30,453 nucleotides of DNA from a virus (IMGVR_UViG_2563366799_000004:1-30453); one strand, 5' to 3'; positions 2,502 to 30,453 are shown, counted from the first letter of the stretch. Made by a program: numbers and translations. Notes: generated by a model not told the origin, from the letters alone.

Positions 2502-2714
2502 ATGACCAGACGTGATCAATATAGCTTCATTTTGCATGTTCTTTTACCTGCTATCGAAAATGAAGGCTTAACCATTAAAACCCGCCGTGATGGTGAGTTA
2601 ACCCTTTCTGCCACTGGATCAGTAACCACAAATTTTATCAGCACCCTGCGCCAGCACTGCATTGAAGAATTGCAGCGCCCTTCTATTCCAGCTTCCCATT
2701 ACGGAGTCCTGTAA
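2502..2714 (+). CDS. Hypothetical small protein (70 aa)
   Basis: ATG with SD GAGGAAGAG; its stop overlaps the dam start (TAAAATG), suggesting translational coupling. Confidence 0.45.
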   Translation: MTRRDQYSFILHVLLPAIENEGLTIKTRRDGELTLSATGSVTTNFISTLRQHCIEELQRPSIPASHYGVL

Positions 2715-2715
2715 A

Positions 2716-3687
2716 ATGATCCGCCCGTTCATCAAATGGGCAGGGGGTAAAACCCGTGTCCTCCCTGACCTGCTGCCGCATCTTCCTAAAGCCGACTGCC
2801 TGATCGAACCGTTCGTAGGCGGCGCATCGGTATTTCTGGCGACTGAATACCGCCGCTATGTGCTGGCTGATATCAACCCGGATCTTATTAACCTGTATCG
2901 GGAAGTCACCCGTTACCCGGACTTAGTGATCGATGCGGCCCGCGAACTGTTCAACAGCAAGAATAGCCCGCAGGGGTACAACGAAGTCCGAGCCGCGTTC
3001 AATAAGCAGGTATGTACGGTAAAAAGCGGTGGGTTGCGTTATGGCGTCGAAATGGCGCGCATCATGCGTGCTGCTCAATTCCTGTATCTGAACCGCCACG
3101 GTTATAACGGCTTATGCCGTTACAGCCGTAAGACCGGCTTTAACGTGCCGTTTGGCAAGTATAAGAGCGTCTACTTTCCTGAAAATGAAATCCGCCTGTT
3201 TGCCGAAAAGGCCAACGATACAAAGGCAATATTTCTTTGCGCGCCGTTCCAGCGTTCTCTACAGGTCGTCACGGGTGGCGATGTTCTCGTTTACTGCGAT
3301 CCGCCTTACCTGCCTGAAAGCAAAACAGCCGATTTTACCCAATACCACACCGAACCATTCACGGAAGACAACCACCGCCAGTTAGTCCAGGCACTGCTGG
3401 AAGTTAACCGTAAGCATGGCGTGAAGGTTGTCATTTCCAACAGCGACACCGAAGCCACCCGCGCGATTTATCAGCCTTTCAAGATGCACGAAATCAGCGT
3501 GCAACGTTCCGTCAGCACTGACAAAGACAACCACCAGAAGGCCAAAGAAGTGATCGGCGTGCTGCCTGTCTGCGACTGCTGCGGGCGTTACGGCGGCGGT
3601 TGCCCTGATTGTGGCGCCGTGATGGGTGATGCGACTTACAACGCGATGGTTGCGGCAGGCACGTTTGACGATCTGGAGGAGTTTTAA
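2716..3687 (+). CDS. dam: DNA adenine methyltransferase (Dam family) with a Cys-rich C-terminal extension
   Basis: N-terminal SAM motif FIKWAGGK, catalytic DPPY motif, plus an extra C-terminal CDCCGRYGGGCPDCG tail. Confidence 0.85.
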   Translation: MIRPFIKWAGGKTRVLPDLLPHLPKADCLIEPFVGGASVFLATEYRRYVLADINPDLINLYREVTRYPDLVIDAARELFNSKNSPQGYNEVRAAFNKQVCTVKSGGLRYGVEMARIMRAAQFLYLNRHGYNGLCRYSRKTGFNVPFGKYKSVYFPENEIRLFAEKANDTKAIFLCAPFQRSLQVVTGGDVLVYCDPPYLPESKTADFTQYHTEPFTEDNHRQLVQALLEVNRKHGVKVVISNSDTEATRAIYQPFKMHEISVQRSVSTDKDNHQKAKEVIGVLPVCDCCGRYGGGCPDCGAVMGDATYNAMVAAGTFDDLEEF

Positions 3688-3866
3688 TGAATCTTGTAGA
3701 CGCCTGGATCGTTGAAATCATAAGCGTGAGTCGTGGCGAGATTGTGCCGTATTGGTTGGTTGAGGCGAAAGTAACAGCTTATGGAAGGGAGTCAATAACC
3801 ACAATTCTGAAGAAATCAGAAGAGGAAGCCAAAGCCGTTAAAGTAGGGGATGTAGTTCAAATATGA
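3687..3866 (+). CDS. Hypothetical small protein (59 aa), translationally coupled between dam and A
   Basis: ATG overlaps the dam stop (TAATG) and its TGA overlaps the A start (ATATGA); not in the ORF track because it is under 60 aa. Confidence 0.35.
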   Translation: MNLVDAWIVEIISVSRGEIVPYWLVEAKVTAYGRESITTILKKSEEEAKAVKVGDVVQI

Positions 3867-6220
3867 CCACGGCAACCCGTGGCCGTCGCGCCCCTTCTCC
3901 ACCTCCACCGTATCCGGGTAGCACTGACAATGCTATCCCTTACGCTTATGGCGGGAACAAACCATACCAGCCGATTGGCGTTGATGTAGCGCCGGGGCTG
4001 GATGGTTTCGACTATCTCACGCCGGACGGCACGCGTAAGCATATTGCGTTCAGTGAACTGGTAGCGGAGGACGAAAAGCCGGAACGCAGTAAGCTGCTGC
4101 GTCGCCGTCTGGCTTCTCTTCCGCAATATGTCCGCCGCCACTTTGCAGCGAAGCTTGATGCGCTGGATGTGAAAGACCGCAAAGCGGCAGATCACTGGCT
4201 GCTTAACACCTTTGAGCGCCACGTATTAACGCGTATTGATAGCGTGAACAGTGTTTACCAGCCTGATACTGTGATGCCCGGCATTCTGCTGCCAATTCGC
4301 GATCAGCTTTTCCGTATGCTCTGGGCAGGGAAAAAAGAGTTAAAAAGACTGGCTTATACGCTTGCCGATATCTTTACGAGCGAGTTTATACGCGAGTCCG
4401 ATCACCAGTTGGTGCGCACCGGCGATCCTGAGTTCGCGGCGCTTTCTGGCTATGGCCGTATTGCATCGCTGGCAGTGCATCTGAAAACGCCGATCCCCGG
4501 TTGGACAGCTTATTGCAATGAAGAACTTGAAGCGGAGGACGCGTTACGCGCAGTTCTCCGTCTTGAGTCACCGCAGTGGTGGTTAAACCGCCTGCGCCGT
4601 ATCCATGCCCGGTGGCGTGAGCATTTGATGATCGCAGCGGGATACGTCCAGAAAAAATCCTCCCCATACAGTAGCGCCCCGTGCCTTACGGAATGGCTGG
4701 CCCAGAAAAAAGCTAACCGTGAATACCTCAAGGCTATGGAACTGGAAGACCAGGACACGGGCGAGCGCATTTCGCTGATCGATAAAGTCGCCGGCAGTGT
4801 TGCCAATCCGGCCAACCGTCGCCGCGAACTCATGACGAGAATGCGCGGATTTGAAGATCTGGCGAAGCTGGAAGGGCTGGCCGGTGACTTCTACACGCTG
4901 ACAGCGCCTTCCCGCTATCACGCTATGCAGCATAACGGGCGCCGTAATAACAAATACTGTGGCGCGTCGCCGCGTGAGACACAGCAATATCTTTGCAAAG
5001 TCTGGGCGAGAACCCGCGCCGCATGGAAGAGAAAAGGGATCCGCGTCTTTGGTTTTCGCGTGGTCGAACCGCACCACGATGCAACGCCACACTGGCATTT
5101 ACTTCTTTTTATGCGCCCGGAATGCGTCGAGCAGGCGCGCGAAATCTTCCGTAAATATGCCCTGAAAGAAGACGGCAACGAACCGGGAGCGCAGGAAAAC
5201 CGCTTTCAGGTTGTGCCGATCGACGATGCCCACGGCAGCGCAACCGGCTACATAGCGAAATACATTTCGAAGAATATCGACGGCTTCGCGCTGGATGGTG
5301 AGAAAGACGACGAAACCGGGGAAGACCTGAAAGAAATGTCACTCCGCGTTAGCGCGTGGGCATCGCGCTGGGCTATTCGTCAGTTTCAGCAGATCGGCGG
5401 TGCGCCGGTCACGGTATATCGCGAACTTCGCCGCCTGGGCGATCGCGAACTGGTGTTACACCCTGAACTGGAAACCGCCCGGCAGGCCGCTAACGGTGGC
5501 GAATGGGATAACTACGTATTAGCCCAGGGTGGCCCATTGGTTGAGCGCGATAAGCTGCGCATCCGTCTGAATTATGAAACCACTGAAAACGGCAACGCCT
5601 ACGGCGATAACGTCCAGCGAATCACAGGTATTTACTGCCCTATTACGGGCAATGACTCTTTGATCTTCACCCGTACCACTCAATACAAAATCGTGCCGAA
5701 GCGCCAGAGCGCTGACGGTGTGGCCGTTGACGTTGGTTTTTCAGGCGGCAGCGCCGCCCCTCGGAGTTCTGTCAATAACTGTACGCGGGATCCCGCGGCA
5801 GGTGCTGACGGTGTTGAACATGCCGATCACGAAGTGGGCGAGACGGTGAATTTTGATGCGCTTTCACGGCAGGAAAAGCGAGAACTGGCACAGAGGCTAA
5901 GTGACGATGTGCGAAGTAAGCGGAAAAAACGGCCACCGGAACGGGAAGACGGGGCCGGGATATCCGTGAAAGAGCAGCAGATCAGTGAACTGCTGGCGCT
6001 GCGTGGGATTGATGCCAGCGTCGGAATGGTCAGATCGATGATGGCCGGTGCGTCAGTGGCGTGCGGCGATCTTGTTATGACAGTGCAGGATGGGCGGCTG
6101 GTATCGCGCAACCGCGCCGCGTCGGGGCTGGATAAGCTGCCGTCGCAGGTGATGGCGGCGAAGCAACAGACAAATAGTCTTATTAACCGAATGAAAAAAG
6201 CCTTTAACGGTGCGTCATAA
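3863..6220 (+). CDS. A: Replication initiation endonuclease, P2 gpA-like (rolling-circle)
   Basis: 785 aa; contains the conserved active-site tyrosine region GYIAKYISKNIDGF typical of P2 A. Confidence 0.9.
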   Translation: MTTATRGRRAPSPPPPYPGSTDNAIPYAYGGNKPYQPIGVDVAPGLDGFDYLTPDGTRKHIAFSELVAEDEKPERSKLLRRRLASLPQYVRRHFAAKLDALDVKDRKAADHWLLNTFERHVLTRIDSVNSVYQPDTVMPGILLPIRDQLFRMLWAGKKELKRLAYTLADIFTSEFIRESDHQLVRTGDPEFAALSGYGRIASLAVHLKTPIPGWTAYCNEELEAEDALRAVLRLESPQWWLNRLRRIHARWREHLMIAAGYVQKKSSPYSSAPCLTEWLAQKKANREYLKAMELEDQDTGERISLIDKVAGSVANPANRRRELMTRMRGFEDLAKLEGLAGDFYTLTAPSRYHAMQHNGRRNNKYCGASPRETQQYLCKVWARTRAAWKRKGIRVFGFRVVEPHHDATPHWHLLLFMRPECVEQAREIFRKYALKEDGNEPGAQENRFQVVPIDDAHGSATGYIAKYISKNIDGFALDGEKDDETGEDLKEMSLRVSAWASRWAIRQFQQIGGAPVTVYRELRRLGDRELVLHPELETARQAANGGEWDNYVLAQGGPLVERDKLRIRLNYETTENGNAYGDNVQRITGIYCPITGNDSLIFTRTTQYKIVPKRQSADGVAVDVGFSGGSAAPRSSVNNCTRDPAAGADGVEHADHEVGETVNFDALSRQEKRELAQRLSDDVRSKRKKRPPEREDGAGISVKEQQISELLALRGIDASVGMVRSMMAGASVACGDLVMTVQDGRLVSRNRAASGLDKLPSQVMAAKQQTNSLINRMKKAFNGAS

Positions 6221-6272
6221 CAGCGTGCCGGGGCTTCGCTTATTCATTTTCAGAAGAAACAGGAGTGACAGC

Positions 6273-6989
6273 ATGAGCAAAATTACCAGAGAACGCGCAG
6301 CAAAAATTGCAGCAGGCGGCGGATATAACTTTGATGAGGTGGAGGAGCTGGCGCGTATCGCGCTGGCATCGCTCGAAGCGGAGGAGTCAGGGCGAAATCC
6401 CGTGCTGGCCTATGCAGACAGTTACCGCGATATGGCTAAGCAGGGTGTTGAATCTATTCCTGTATGGAGCGTAATTACCGATCTGGAAAGAAATATCGCC
6501 CCGCTATACTCCGCCTCGCCAGCGCCGGTAGTTCCGGCAGAGCTTCATCCTGATACGCTGAAACTGGTGACCGACTTCAGCTCTGCCCTGGCTGAGAAGT
6601 TGTACAAGGCTCAATTAAAATATGGCTATGACGCGGACTGGAAACAAGATGGTTGGCCAAGCCAATGCCAGGCAGACTTTCAACAGCATATAGCTAAGGG
6701 AGACCCCCGGGATATTGCCGCTTACTGTGCATTTATGTGGTATCACGGCTGGAAAACTGAGCCAGCGCCGGTATCGCTGCCTGACGAGCAACATAGCGAA
6801 CGCTTCAACTGGACACTTGGGCAGTGGGCTGAACATGTTGGGGGTCATTACCAGGGAAATGATCCGGCAAACTATTACGAGTTCGGCTCATTCATGGCGG
6901 TCGCTGCAATGCTGTGCCAATTCGGCACCGTTCAGCAAAAAATTGGATGGAACGCCTGCCGCGCCGCCATGGTTAACGCAGGCCAGTGA
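6273..6989 (+). CDS. Cargo protein in the A-to-cos variable locus; C-terminal half loosely resembles DUF550-type prophage proteins (function unknown)
   Basis: 238 aa from ATG 6273 (SD AGGAGTGA); occupies the position of tin/old in P2; motifs KYGYDADW and KGDPRDIAAYCAFMWYHG; family assignment is from memory only. Confidence 0.6.
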   Translation: MSKITRERAAKIAAGGGYNFDEVEELARIALASLEAEESGRNPVLAYADSYRDMAKQGVESIPVWSVITDLERNIAPLYSASPAPVVPAELHPDTLKLVTDFSSALAEKLYKAQLKYGYDADWKQDGWPSQCQADFQQHIAKGDPRDIAAYCAFMWYHGWKTEPAPVSLPDEQHSERFNWTLGQWAEHVGGHYQGNDPANYYEFGSFMAVAAMLCQFGTVQQKIGWNACRAAMVNAGQ

Positions 6990-7138
6990 ATGGCTTTGCG
7001 GGAGTGCTGAAAATCAGTGCAAAATTTCGCGCAAAACCGCACAAATTTTATGATGGTGATTTTTCAGGAGCAGACCAGACGGGGCGGGCCTTCCGCTGGT
7101 CTGCACATTTGCACAAAAAAGCGGGGTTTCTGCGTGCG

Positions 7139-7157
7139 GGCGAGGCGGGGGAATGAG
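7139..7157. other. Putative cos (cohesive end) site
   Basis: GGCGAGGCGGGGGAATGAG closely resembles the P2 19-nt cohesive end GGCGAGGCGGGGAAAGCAC; lies between the A-side locus and portal gene as in P2. Confidence 0.5.
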
Positions 7158-7251
7158 CGCGCGCTGAGGGGTGGGATAGGGTCGGTATTATCTGCGCCGA
7201 TTTTCGCGCCGCTGCGCCTCGCTGCTGCGTCGTTTTCGGTTCGCCGTGGTG

Positions 7252-7297
7252 GGTTGAGGAAAAAGAAAAGCCCCTGCCAGCAGGCTGCTGAGGGGCT
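7252..7297 (-). terminator. Rho-independent terminator downstream of portal gene Q
   Basis: Hairpin AAGCCCCT...AGGGGCTT with inner CAGCAG/CTGCTG pairing, followed on the minus strand by TTTTCTTTTTCC. Confidence 0.6.
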
Positions 7298-7367
7298 TAC
7301 GTGCGGTGTGGTCAGTTATGGCCGTGTAGGACTTTGCGCGGTGGTGGTGGGTGTGTCCGGGCTGGCG

Positions 7368-8417
7368 TCAGATTGCTGCCTGCAACAGTGCGTAAGGGTT
7401 GAAGCGCACCACGTCGATCCCCAGCCAGTCGTTTAACTCTTTCAGGCTTTCTTGTATCGGGGCCAGTTCGTTGATGGAAAACACCTTCGCCGCTTTCTCT
7501 ACGTCGCCGAAGCCACCGGAGTTATTCGGCATTACCCCCATCAGAACGGGCGGCACGCGGTGCGCGGCTAACAGGTCGTCGCGGGTGGCGTCTTTGATGC
7601 CGGTAAACTCATCCTTCGCCGCCACCTGGCTGAACGGCATAATTTGCAGGCCGTCTTTTTTCCCGCCCGCCGCGTAGACAAACAGGTTTTTAAAAGCACC
7701 GTTGCCGCGTGCATCTTTCAGCGACTTCTTAAGCTTTTCCACATCGTTATTATTCGCCACCGGGTCAGTGAGGTAGACGATCACACCCGCATGACTGCCG
7801 TTAATGTAGTAGTTGCGGCGGAACACCGTTGCTTCACCGTTCAGCATGGCGCTTTGTAGCGCGGCCAGATATTCCGGCGCACCGTAGATCTCCTGGTGCG
7901 GGCTGGGGTTCTTGATCTGGCAGACGCTGCCCGGTTCGAACGCGTGATCGTCAACGTAGCGCGGAACAAACCAGAATTGCGCCGGGTCTATGCCGCGCCG
8001 CGTATATTTTGCCTGGCTGTGCCGCAGCTCGATCGGCTGGCCGAGTCGGTTGCGGCGGCATTCCATGTAACAGTTACCGAAAATTAAATAATCCTGCACC
8101 CAGGCGGTGAACTCCTGCCGGGTCAACAGCGGGTGCGGTATGTAGCAACTGGCGATAACATTGCGTTTAAATATCAGCGGTGACTGGTGATAGGCGGCAA
8201 CGTCGAACATGCGCGCCAGCCCGTAGGGGCTGATCGGTGGTTCATACCAGCGGCCATTGTTATGGCATTCGAGGCACTCCATAAGAGACGCGCGATCGTT
8301 GACTGCGATCGGGTCGCCAAAGCTGAAAGATTCCACGCTTTCCAGCGGGGTGGCTGCGTTGCTGGCCGTGCTGGCTGGCGCAGCAGTTGGCGCCCTGAAT
8401 TTTTTTTTGCCGCTCAA
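7368..8417 (-). CDS. Q: Portal protein, P2 gpQ-like
   Basis: 349 aa; position and family resemblance to P2 Q; directly abuts P. Confidence 0.85.
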   Translation of the reverse strand: MSGKKKFRAPTAAPASTASNAATPLESVESFSFGDPIAVNDRASLMECLECHNNGRWYEPPISPYGLARMFDVAAYHQSPLIFKRNVIASCYIPHPLLTRQEFTAWVQDYLIFGNCYMECRRNRLGQPIELRHSQAKYTRRGIDPAQFWFVPRYVDDHAFEPGSVCQIKNPSPHQEIYGAPEYLAALQSAMLNGEATVFRRNYYINGSHAGVIVYLTDPVANNNDVEKLKKSLKDARGNGAFKNLFVYAAGGKKDGLQIMPFSQVAAKDEFTGIKDATRDDLLAAHRVPPVLMGVMPNNSGGFGDVEKAAKVFSINELAPIQESLKELNDWLGIDVVRFNPYALLQAAI

Positions 8418-29469: not shown

Positions 29470-29550
29470 ATCCTCAATTTGCCTGCTGCTTAATGCATTG
29501 CAGATGATTTGCTTCCGTTATACTAGCGTCAGTTGATAGCGGGAGTATTT

Positions 29551-30453
29551 ATGAATCAATCTTATGGACGGCTGGTCAGTCGGGCGGCGATGGCTGCGAC
29601 GGCGATGGCTTCGTTGCTATTGCTGATTAAAATTTTTGCATGGTGGTATACCGGGTCGGTGAGTATTCTCGCCGCGCTGGTGGATTCGCTGGTGGATATC
29701 GGCGCGTCGTTGACGAATTTACTGGTGGTGCGATATTCCCTGCAACCTGCCGACGATAATCACTCGTTTGGTCACGGTAAAGCTGAGTCCCTCGCGGCGC
29801 TGGCGCAAAGTATGTTTATCTCCGGTTCGGCACTATTCCTGTTTTTGACGGGTATTCAACATCTGGTATCTCCAACACCGATGACAGATCCAGGCGTCGG
29901 GGTTATCGTGACAATTGTGGCGCTAATTTGTACGATTATCCTTGTCTCGTTTCAGCGGTGGGTGGTGCGCCGGACGCAAAGCCAGGCGGTGCGGGCTGAT
30001 ATGCTACATTACCAGTCTGATGTTATGATGAACGGCGCAATTCTGCTGGCGCTGGGGTTGTCCTGGTACGGCTGGCATCGCGCCGATGCTCTGTTTGCAT
30101 TGGGAATCGGCATCTATATTTTATATAGCGCGTTACGCATGGGATATGAGGCGGTACAGTCATTACTGGATCGCGCATTGCCTGATGAGGAACGGCAAGA
30201 AATTATTGATATCGTGACTTCCTGGCCGGGTGTTAGCGGCGCTCACGATCTTCGCACGCGGCAGTCAGGGCCGACCCGCTTTATTCAGATTCATTTGGAA
30301 ATGGAAGACTCTCTGCCTTTGGTTCAGGCACATATGGTGGCGGATCAGGTAGAGCAGGCTATTTTACGGCGTTTTCCGGGATCGGATGTAATTATCCATC
30401 AGGACCCCTGTTCCGTCGTACCCAGGGAGGGTAAACGGTCTATGCTTTCATAA
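29551..30453 (+). CDS. fieF: Cation-diffusion-facilitator family Fe(II)/Zn(II) efflux transporter FieF (YiiP); host gene
   Basis: Starts [13 protein letters not shown]..., TM-rich N-terminal domain with HSFGHGKAE and cytoplasmic C-terminal domain; ATG 29551 with GGGAG SD (track start 29533 is TTG). Confidence 0.9.

Follow-up and report, generated by a model that had tools for sequence, protein, structure and literature searches.

Why does the Dam methyltransferase of a prophage carry a Cys-rich C-terminal tail that chromosomal Dam lacks, and what might such a tail do? The question is raised by a gene located at positions 2716..3687 (+ strand) of a 30,453-nt stretch of viral DNA (IMGVR_UViG_2563366799_000004), which as a whole will be named hereafter the window. 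The window is a complete P2-like (Peduoviridae) prophage, in which the genes for the integrase, Cox, Fil and the gpA replication protein surround the Dam gene. From left to right, it encodes the integrase (positions 1-981, - strand, at the left end of the prophage), a repressor-like HTH protein, Cox, Fil, small ORFs, Dam, a 59-aa ORF, gpA and the morphogenesis genes, and a host cation-efflux gene is found at the right end. The Dam gene is part of the early operon of this prophage, whose hosts are E. coli and relatives, and lies just upstream of gene A. When the region covering positions 1-25,000 was used as query, the DNA was 94.8% identical to that of Salmonella phage SEN4/SEN5 over 85% of the 25 kb, and the Dam protein shares 98% identity, tail included, with its counterpart in Enterobacter phage phiT5282H. 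The gene itself is an intact ORF of 323 codons plus stop (TAA at positions 3685-3687), preceded by a GGAG ribosome-binding site read from the sequence at positions 2703..2706 (+ strand), 9 nt before the ATG. Upstream lies an ORF of 70 aa (positions 2502-2714), whose stop codon at 2712-2714 ends one base before the Dam ATG at 2716, which suggests translational coupling.

The methyltransferase core comprises residues 1-281 (positions 2716..3558, + strand), as delimited by Pfam, TIGR00571 and the alignment to E. coli Dam (PDB 2g1p). Both motifs by which an earlier sequence-only reading had recognised a prophage Dam are present, FIKWAGGK at residues 5-12 and the catalytic DPPY at residues 195-198 (positions 3298..3309, + strand; aligned with the DPPY of E. 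coli Dam), and this identification holds, with P2-like prophage genes on either side and a match to Pfam MethyltransfD12 (PF02086) over residues 8-265 (E = 5e-63, 213.7 bits against a cut-off of 22). The protein also passed the NCBIfam Dam subfamily model TIGR00571 (271.2 bits; cut-off 114.85), and its score of 276.6 bits with NF008152, the chromosomal Dam equivalog, lay below the cut-off of 441; judged from these models, it belongs to the Dam family without being an orthologue of the housekeeping Dam. Using phmmer, E. coli Dam (278 aa) could be aligned to residues 3-281 (E = 5e-70), with the AdoMet-binding motif I (EPFVGGASV, residues 31-39) falling on the same motif of the E. coli enzyme. 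The segment at positions 3103..3162 (+ strand) contains most of the GATC-recognition residues, namely Y130, N131, L133, R135, P145 and Y149, which correspond to E. coli Dam Y119, N120, L122, R124, P134 and Y138 and are all identical, as is K7 (positions 2734-2736, + strand), the equivalent of K9. The roles of these seven E. coli Dam residues in GATC recognition have been described (PMC4417163). Since all GATC-contact residues are identical, GATC specificity would be the default expectation, and on the strength of the conserved residues the protein looks like an active, GATC-specific N6-adenine methyltransferase.

E. coli Dam (PDB 2g1p, 4gol) and the window Dam thus belong to the same D12/alpha-group fold family, with the same DPPY, motif I and GATC-contact residues, but the former is encoded at the chromosomal dam locus whereas the latter lies in a prophage early operon and has a 14-residue insertion, at about residues 101-114, as well as a Cys-rich extension. 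The insertion and the score under the equivalog cut-off leave room for enzyme properties that may be altered. Among eight close 323-aa alleles, a small sample, pN/pS in the core was 0.06, and the intact ORF is subject to purifying selection. AF2 prediction of the whole protein from its single sequence gave no usable model (pLDDT 34).

The extension, which had been estimated at ~45 residues from the sequence alone, measures 42 (residues 282-323) and takes the place of the final 12 residues of the E. coli enzyme, whose alignment stops at residue 281, so that the claim that chromosomal Dam lacks this tail is borne out as well. It is made up of a 3-residue linker (VLP, residues 282-284, positions 3559..3567) between the part alignable to E. 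coli Dam and what follows, a 29-residue four-Cys mini-domain (VCDCCGRYGGGCPDCGAVMGDATYNAMVA, residues 285-313, positions 3568..3654) and a 10-residue acidic tip (AGTFDDLEEF, residues 314-323, positions 3655..3684), all on the + strand. Five of the ten Cys of the protein fall within 14 residues of the tail, where the Cys-rich motif CDCCGRYGGGCPDCG can be read at residues 286-300 (positions 3571-3615, + strand). This Cys cluster is no chance feature, since it is kept in relatives and in unrelated proteins (see below). The mini-domain, which we will refer to as the module, follows the motif CxxCG..GGG.CPDCG[AP]VMGDATYxxM, the first knuckle being formed by C286 and C289, with an extra C288, and the second by C296 and C299. 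Among the eight close alleles, again a small sample, pairwise comparison of the module yielded no nonsynonymous difference against 14 synonymous ones, whereas the last ten residues showed a pN/pS of 0.46; the module is under purifying selection, and the tip evolves faster and is under a weaker protein-level constraint.

In 46 diverse module sequences, C296, P297, D298, C299, G300, G304, T307 and Y308 are invariant, and C286, G290 and G295 nearly so. C286 is present in 43 of the 46; the first Cys is missing in the three others and also in five viral loci (L043, L055, L076, L081 and L091), and strict Cys4 ligation is therefore not universal. The fourth Cys is located either at C289 (38 sequences) or at C293 (8 sequences), in no case at both and in no case at neither (n = 46; Fisher p = 4e-9, a value that overstates the independence of the sequences because they are related), a pattern that fits a putative tetrahedral Cys4 metal site. 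We infer that the four Cys could bind one zinc ion and thereby hold a knuckle-plus-helix fold. When the tail was modelled by AF2 with an alignment (mean pLDDT 67), a short turn was predicted at CPDC and a helix at D305-A313, the latter at a pLDDT of ~80. In such a small domain, the conservation of GAVMGDATY could be structural only.

A possible zinc-ribbon had been proposed from the sequence alone, and this proposal fits what was found, given the two CxxC knuckles and the fourth Cys that is always present. When PDB was searched with the sequence and with a profile of the tail, nothing significant was returned (E 0.04-1), the weak matches all being zinc ribbons, and a Foldseek search of the tail model against PDB and BFVD gave no significant neighbour (E > 1). 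With the known Cys4 zinc ribbons (the TFIIB ribbon, the PIN-associated ribbon 2lcq, DUF1610 and the rubredoxin knuckles) the likeness consists in the two CxxC knuckles; in TFIIB, CPECGLVVGD resembles the second knuckle of the module (CP[DE]CG followed by two hydrophobic residues, G and D), as a weak match that is not significant. Compared to generic zinc ribbons, however, the module has a Gly-rich inter-knuckle loop of 6-7 residues and a helix, DATYxxM, after the second knuckle. By its sequence, then, the module has a zinc ribbon or knuckle pattern and matches no described family. Library searches found no Pfam, NCBIfam or PDB entry for it as a domain, and no description was met in the literature searched, mostly open-access papers; an earlier account of the RecE motif elsewhere is possible.

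The 120 closest Dam relatives (53-98% identity) all come from Enterobacterales prophages, and most of them are 305-335 aa long with Cys-rich tails. A tail that is ordinary among Dam orthologues had been named in the sequence-only reading as speaking against it, and here the outcome is divided, the tail being absent from chromosomal Dam but present in most of these 120 closest prophage relatives. The commonest type of tail is that of the window (VCxxCGRxGGGxCPDCG[PA]xMGDATYxxM...); a second type ends in ...CPDCGPCAGYS...SDVLPGYWESEENPIPL, the SEN4/SEN5 type contains ten Cys, and further types exist among the relatives, as do Cys-free ends and forms without a tail. The Dam genes of P2-like phages and prophages (phiT5282H, SEN4/SEN5, SW3/SI7 and Klebsiella prophages) occupy the same slot upstream of gene A, but their tails are interchangeable, with SEN4/SEN5 switching to the 10-Cys tail past the Gly loop. 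A DNA alignment shows near identity between the window and phage SEN5 as far as an approximate mosaic junction at positions 3592..3600 (~3598, in the Gly-rich loop) and no relationship after it, where SEN5 continues with its 10-Cys tail and then a Dcm gene. Because this junction falls within the tail, the tail is a recombination-prone, exchangeable region.

The module is also found outside the methyltransferases. A tblastn search with the last 65 residues of the window Dam matched RecE (exonuclease VIII) genes of Rac-like prophages and phages with ~64% identity; BLASTP of the whole Dam against the RecE of Rac-SA53 aligned residues 285-319 to RecE residues 540-570 (64% identity, E = 1e-10), and the tail matches the NCBIfam RecE model (NF007259) at positions 527-553. 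In a RecE of K-12 length (866 aa), the module corresponds to residues 517-545, between the N-terminal region and the nuclease domain, and is outside the solved RecE structure, which covers residues 605-866 only (3h4r). The resemblance goes no further, as the window protein gave no match to Pfam Exonuc_VIII or DUF3799 and only 26-36 residues match RecE; the common part is a 30-residue module, CxxCG..GGxCPDCGAVMGDATYxxxF, and nothing else. Moreover, the module is internal and N-terminal of the nuclease domain in RecE, but C-terminal to the methyltransferase in the window Dam. By these comparisons the window protein is not a member of the RecE family, with which it has one module in common. When a degenerate DNA pattern for CPDCGAVMGDATY was searched, at least 120 viral contigs were retrieved, most matches lying in RecE and about ten in Dam, and many synonymous codon variants were found to encode CPDCGAVMGDATY among them. 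That the core of the tail is a module in common with RecE and other phage proteins had been missed in the sequence-only reading.

A profile of the tail was compared with 1.84 billion representative proteins and gave 87 hits at E ≤ 1e-3, ~45 of which are single, full-length module matches. About 40 others, although high-scoring, lie in giant proteins with Listeria-Bacteroides-type repeats (GWTPxxxAVTGDATYTAxF), which are Cys-free and match over many weak stretches, and were rejected as spurious. The carriers of the module include D12 methyltransferases, RecE proteins (Exonuc_VIII plus DUF3799), phrog_27803 proteins, in which it is internal, and a fusion (P0046) in which it precedes an Rv2179c-like DEDD 3'-5' exonuclease domain. 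It also forms the extreme C-terminus of many early-operon proteins of 90-190 aa from temperate phages. These small module-bearing proteins match two PHROG exonuclease families via the module, and one of them is encoded in a prophage early operon beside a DUF3799 nuclease, RecT, another Dam and RdgC. Both in RecE and in the other carriers, the module sits in linkers that are acidic or of low complexity. The hosts belong to the Enterobacterales, the Aeromonadales (an Aeromonas phage, Oceanisphaera) and the Pasteurellales (an Actinobacillus phage). By protein similarity, the core of the tail is homologous to an internal segment of RecE, and the mini-domain is a mobile module.

As to function, we consider it reasonably probable that the protein is a GATC methylase of a P2-like prophage bearing a zinc-stabilised, shuffled accessory module, which would dock early enzymes on a common partner and leave their specificity unchanged. 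Here, the four Cys would bind one zinc and hold the knuckle-plus-helix fold, and the module would serve as an accessory tether that brings early phage DNA enzymes onto this partner, as its context and charge suggest, the sequence specificity of the methylase remaining the same. Given that the module is acidic and set in acidic linkers, the partner is more likely to be a host or phage protein than DNA. The methylase could top up GATC methylation while GATC-rich phage DNA is being rapidly replicated (the prophage contains 200 GATC sites, where dinucleotide shuffles predict 103.5 ± 8.6), and the extra methylation would protect the phage DNA from enzymes that attack un- or hemimethylated GATC. Host Dam has been reported to be limiting for high-copy DNA, and the same work reported Dam and RecE as anti-restriction functions and as triggers of retron-Sen2, using tail-less host and P1 Dam and, in vitro, a truncated RecE (bioRxiv 10.1101/2020.06.22.160242). 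Since the reported triggers are a tail-less Dam and a truncated RecE, the module is not implicated, and a link between the module and retron triggering was rejected.

Other explanations of the tail must be weighed against docking by an accessory module. The idea that the tail is a zinc-ribbon DNA-binding domain, which would retarget the methylase or raise its DNA affinity or processivity, draws on the two CxxC knuckles, on the weak profile likeness to zinc ribbons associated with nucleic acid, e.g. that of TFIIB, and on the fact that all enzyme partners of the module (Dam, RecE, the DEDD exonuclease) work on DNA. It seems unlikely to us, however, as the module is net acidic (mean charge -2.3, range -6 to +1) without any conserved basic residue, lies within a strongly acidic linker in RecE, and is also carried by small proteins that have no recognisable DNA enzyme. 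In particular, the retargeting suggested in the sequence-only reading is unlikely because the GATC-contact residues of the core are unchanged and the module is acidic. A regulatory role, be it as a tag for degradation or stability, as an autoinhibitory lid covering the DNA cleft, or as a redox- or metal-responsive switch that restricts the early enzymes in time, has a very low probability in our view: an internal position between two large domains, as in RecE, poorly suits a terminal degron, even though only early-operon proteins carry the module, it is rich in Cys, and an acidic tail might act as a DNA mimic in the cleft of the methylase. Least probable, to the point of being nearly negligible, is that the tail has no function and is a mere by-product of mosaic recombination where the Dam gene ends. 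The junction with SEN5 inside the tail would agree with such an origin, as would the occurrence, within one Dam clade, of forms without a tail next to several tail types that are unrelated, but the module shows no nonsynonymous difference against 14 synonymous ones among alleles, its protein sequence is kept with varied codons in unrelated proteins, and the compensating fourth Cys is always present. Furthermore, PGAP splits the gene into two 'pseudogenes' in one E. coli genome, which would speak for this reading, but the ORF there is intact; the two 'pseudogenes' are one unbroken gene, which accounts for this annotation problem.

The acidic end of the tail calls for a separate explanation. Its last codons coincide with a signal for translation: the L-E-E codons of Dam contain GGAGG (positions 3675..3679, + strand), the ribosome-binding site of the downstream 59-aa ORF (positions 3687..3866, + strand), which is translationally coupled, its ATG at 3687-3689 overlapping the Dam stop codon as TAATG, and which is followed by replication gene A (gpA, positions 3863-6220). 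In tails ending in -E-x-F, a GAG codon and the next G form GGAGG or AGGAG 7-9 nt before an ATG, and the downstream ATG overlaps the Dam stop (TAATG or TGATG); this was the case in the window and in all of a further 12 distinct Dam loci examined, behind which five different reading frames follow. The embedded Shine-Dalgarno of the next gene means that a constraint at the DNA level accounts for the acidic -E-x-F end, so that the '-LEEF' terminus appears best explained by the ribosome-binding site of the next gene. Alternatively, FDDLEEF-COOH could imitate the C-terminal tip of the host SSB, MDFDDDIPF-COOH, a sequence taken from PMC10018359, or the acidic Phe tails of T7 replication proteins, and so dock Dam on SSB-binding replisome or repair proteins. 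The Dam tip does agree with that of SSB in its Phe at -7 and -1 and its Asp at -6 and -5, and of 110 relatives with a tail, 52 have Phe as their last residue and 74 have Phe, Leu or Trp, mostly following acidic residues and in more than one type of tail. Yet the -E-x-F end coincides with a downstream Shine-Dalgarno whatever the next gene is, the tip, with a pN/pS of 0.46, changes more rapidly than the module, the Dam tip lacks the Pro that SSB has at -2, and neither RecE nor the small module proteins have a tip of this kind. SSB-tip mimicry is thus largely explained away by the embedded ribosome-binding site, and we keep it as a rival of decidedly low probability. The 59-aa ORF, for its part, gave no Pfam or NCBIfam match; it was considered as a dedicated partner of the module and rejected, being present in phiT5282H only within the phage collection, with other type-A tails preceding different genes.

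Going beyond the window, it is conceivable, if tentative, that the Cys4 module constitutes a docking domain not described so far, shuffled horizontally, which brings early DNA enzymes to one common host target. Such a domain would operate in temperate phages of Dam-positive gamma-proteobacteria, on Dam, RecE, the DEDD exonuclease and small Rec-module proteins, and the candidate targets would be a hub of the replisome or of repair, or else a defence protein. That a methylase, exonucleases of two kinds and several small early proteins all bear the same module points to a partner, or a place in the infected cell, that they share. The RecE region upstream of the nuclease domain is not known to have an assigned function, yet it reportedly influences linear-linear recombination (Fu et al. 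2012). If the idea of a docking domain is true, a single function would be common to the tails of prophage Dam and to the N-terminal part of RecE. What may be new is that the Dam tail is a discrete, conserved, putative metal-binding module in common with RecE, a much-used recombineering enzyme. Prophage Dam matters for anti-restriction, mismatch repair, retron triggering and host epigenetics, and a domain that controls where or when Dam acts would be relevant to these.

While the gene is already in databases, the shared module and its distribution appear to be undescribed in the libraries and papers searched. The databases contain, from E. coli and under the name of Dam family methyltransferase, a protein identical to the 323-aa Dam, which falls in a 90%-identity cluster of 1,261 members, and the gene was found in 30 of 5,426 complete E. 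coli genomes.

The tail of the window's Dam (residues 282–323 of 323) contains a mosaic junction, located at approximately window 3592–3600 by comparison with the corresponding locus of phage SEN5 (L123:2739–4728). That is, the Dam proteins of SEN4 and SEN5 are nearly identical to the window's Dam as far as the Gly loop, whereas beyond this loop they carry a different tail with 10 Cys residues (…HCAQCCPGIAACEEGWSFDCCGNCDICEPSDNPETW). The exchange is accompanied by a difference downstream, where the window has a 59-aa ORF but SEN4 and SEN5 encode a cytosine methylase, Dcm. This ORF (3687–3866) is translationally coupled to Dam (TAATG), has no family match in Pfam or NCBIfam, and within the phage collection is carried by phiT5282H only. 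A second common tail type was also seen among the Dam relatives (P0104, P0106, P0126, P0130, P0142 and others), in which the first half is the same as in the window's tail (…CGRHGGGxCPDCGPCAGYS…) and the terminus is acidic, …SDVLPGYWESEENPIPL, ending in I-P-L-COOH.

The core differs from E. coli Dam as well, by 14 extra residues (TVKSGGLRYGVEMA; residues ~101–114, window 3016–3057), which the alignment places between the DNA-recognition segment and the N-terminal helices. In E. coli 0H26 (NZ_CP081782), the RefSeq/PGAP annotation breaks L142:3001–3972 into two pseudogenes, each labelled a partial 'DNA adenine methylase', but translation of this region gives an intact 323-aa ORF with no interruption. 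The tail therefore appears to mislead the pipeline, and the split annotation seems to be due to it.

The Cys4 module of the tail is also found at the end of P0028, a 179-aa protein encoded in a prophage early operon (L125:1–7541) together with a DUF3799 nuclease, RecT, a PF05869-type Dam and RdgC; P0028 is followed by a 334-aa protein with a weak match to the DnaJ CXXCXGXG motif. Giant repeat proteins (P0002, P0003, P0005 and others) scored against the tail profile through their 'GWTPxxxAVTGDATYTAxF' units, because the string AV.GDATY..F is common to both. These proteins lack Cys and were rejected as relatives of the module, their sequence likeness to the tail probably being due to chance.

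The Dam-carrying prophage is strongly enriched for GATC, with 200 sites over the whole window (one per 152 bp) against 103.5 ± 8.6 expected from dinucleotide-preserving shuffles; no GATC avoidance was seen across positions 1–30453.

In P2 relatives, the slot that separates replication gene A from the portal gene holds variable cargo or defence genes. Here it is occupied by two ORFs (259 and 139 aa; 6210–7436), for which a Pfam search returned no match. With an integrase at the left end (1–981) and a host FieF-like cation-efflux gene (Cation_efflux and ZT_dimer domains; 29533–30453) at the right end, the window covers the whole prophage and one junction.
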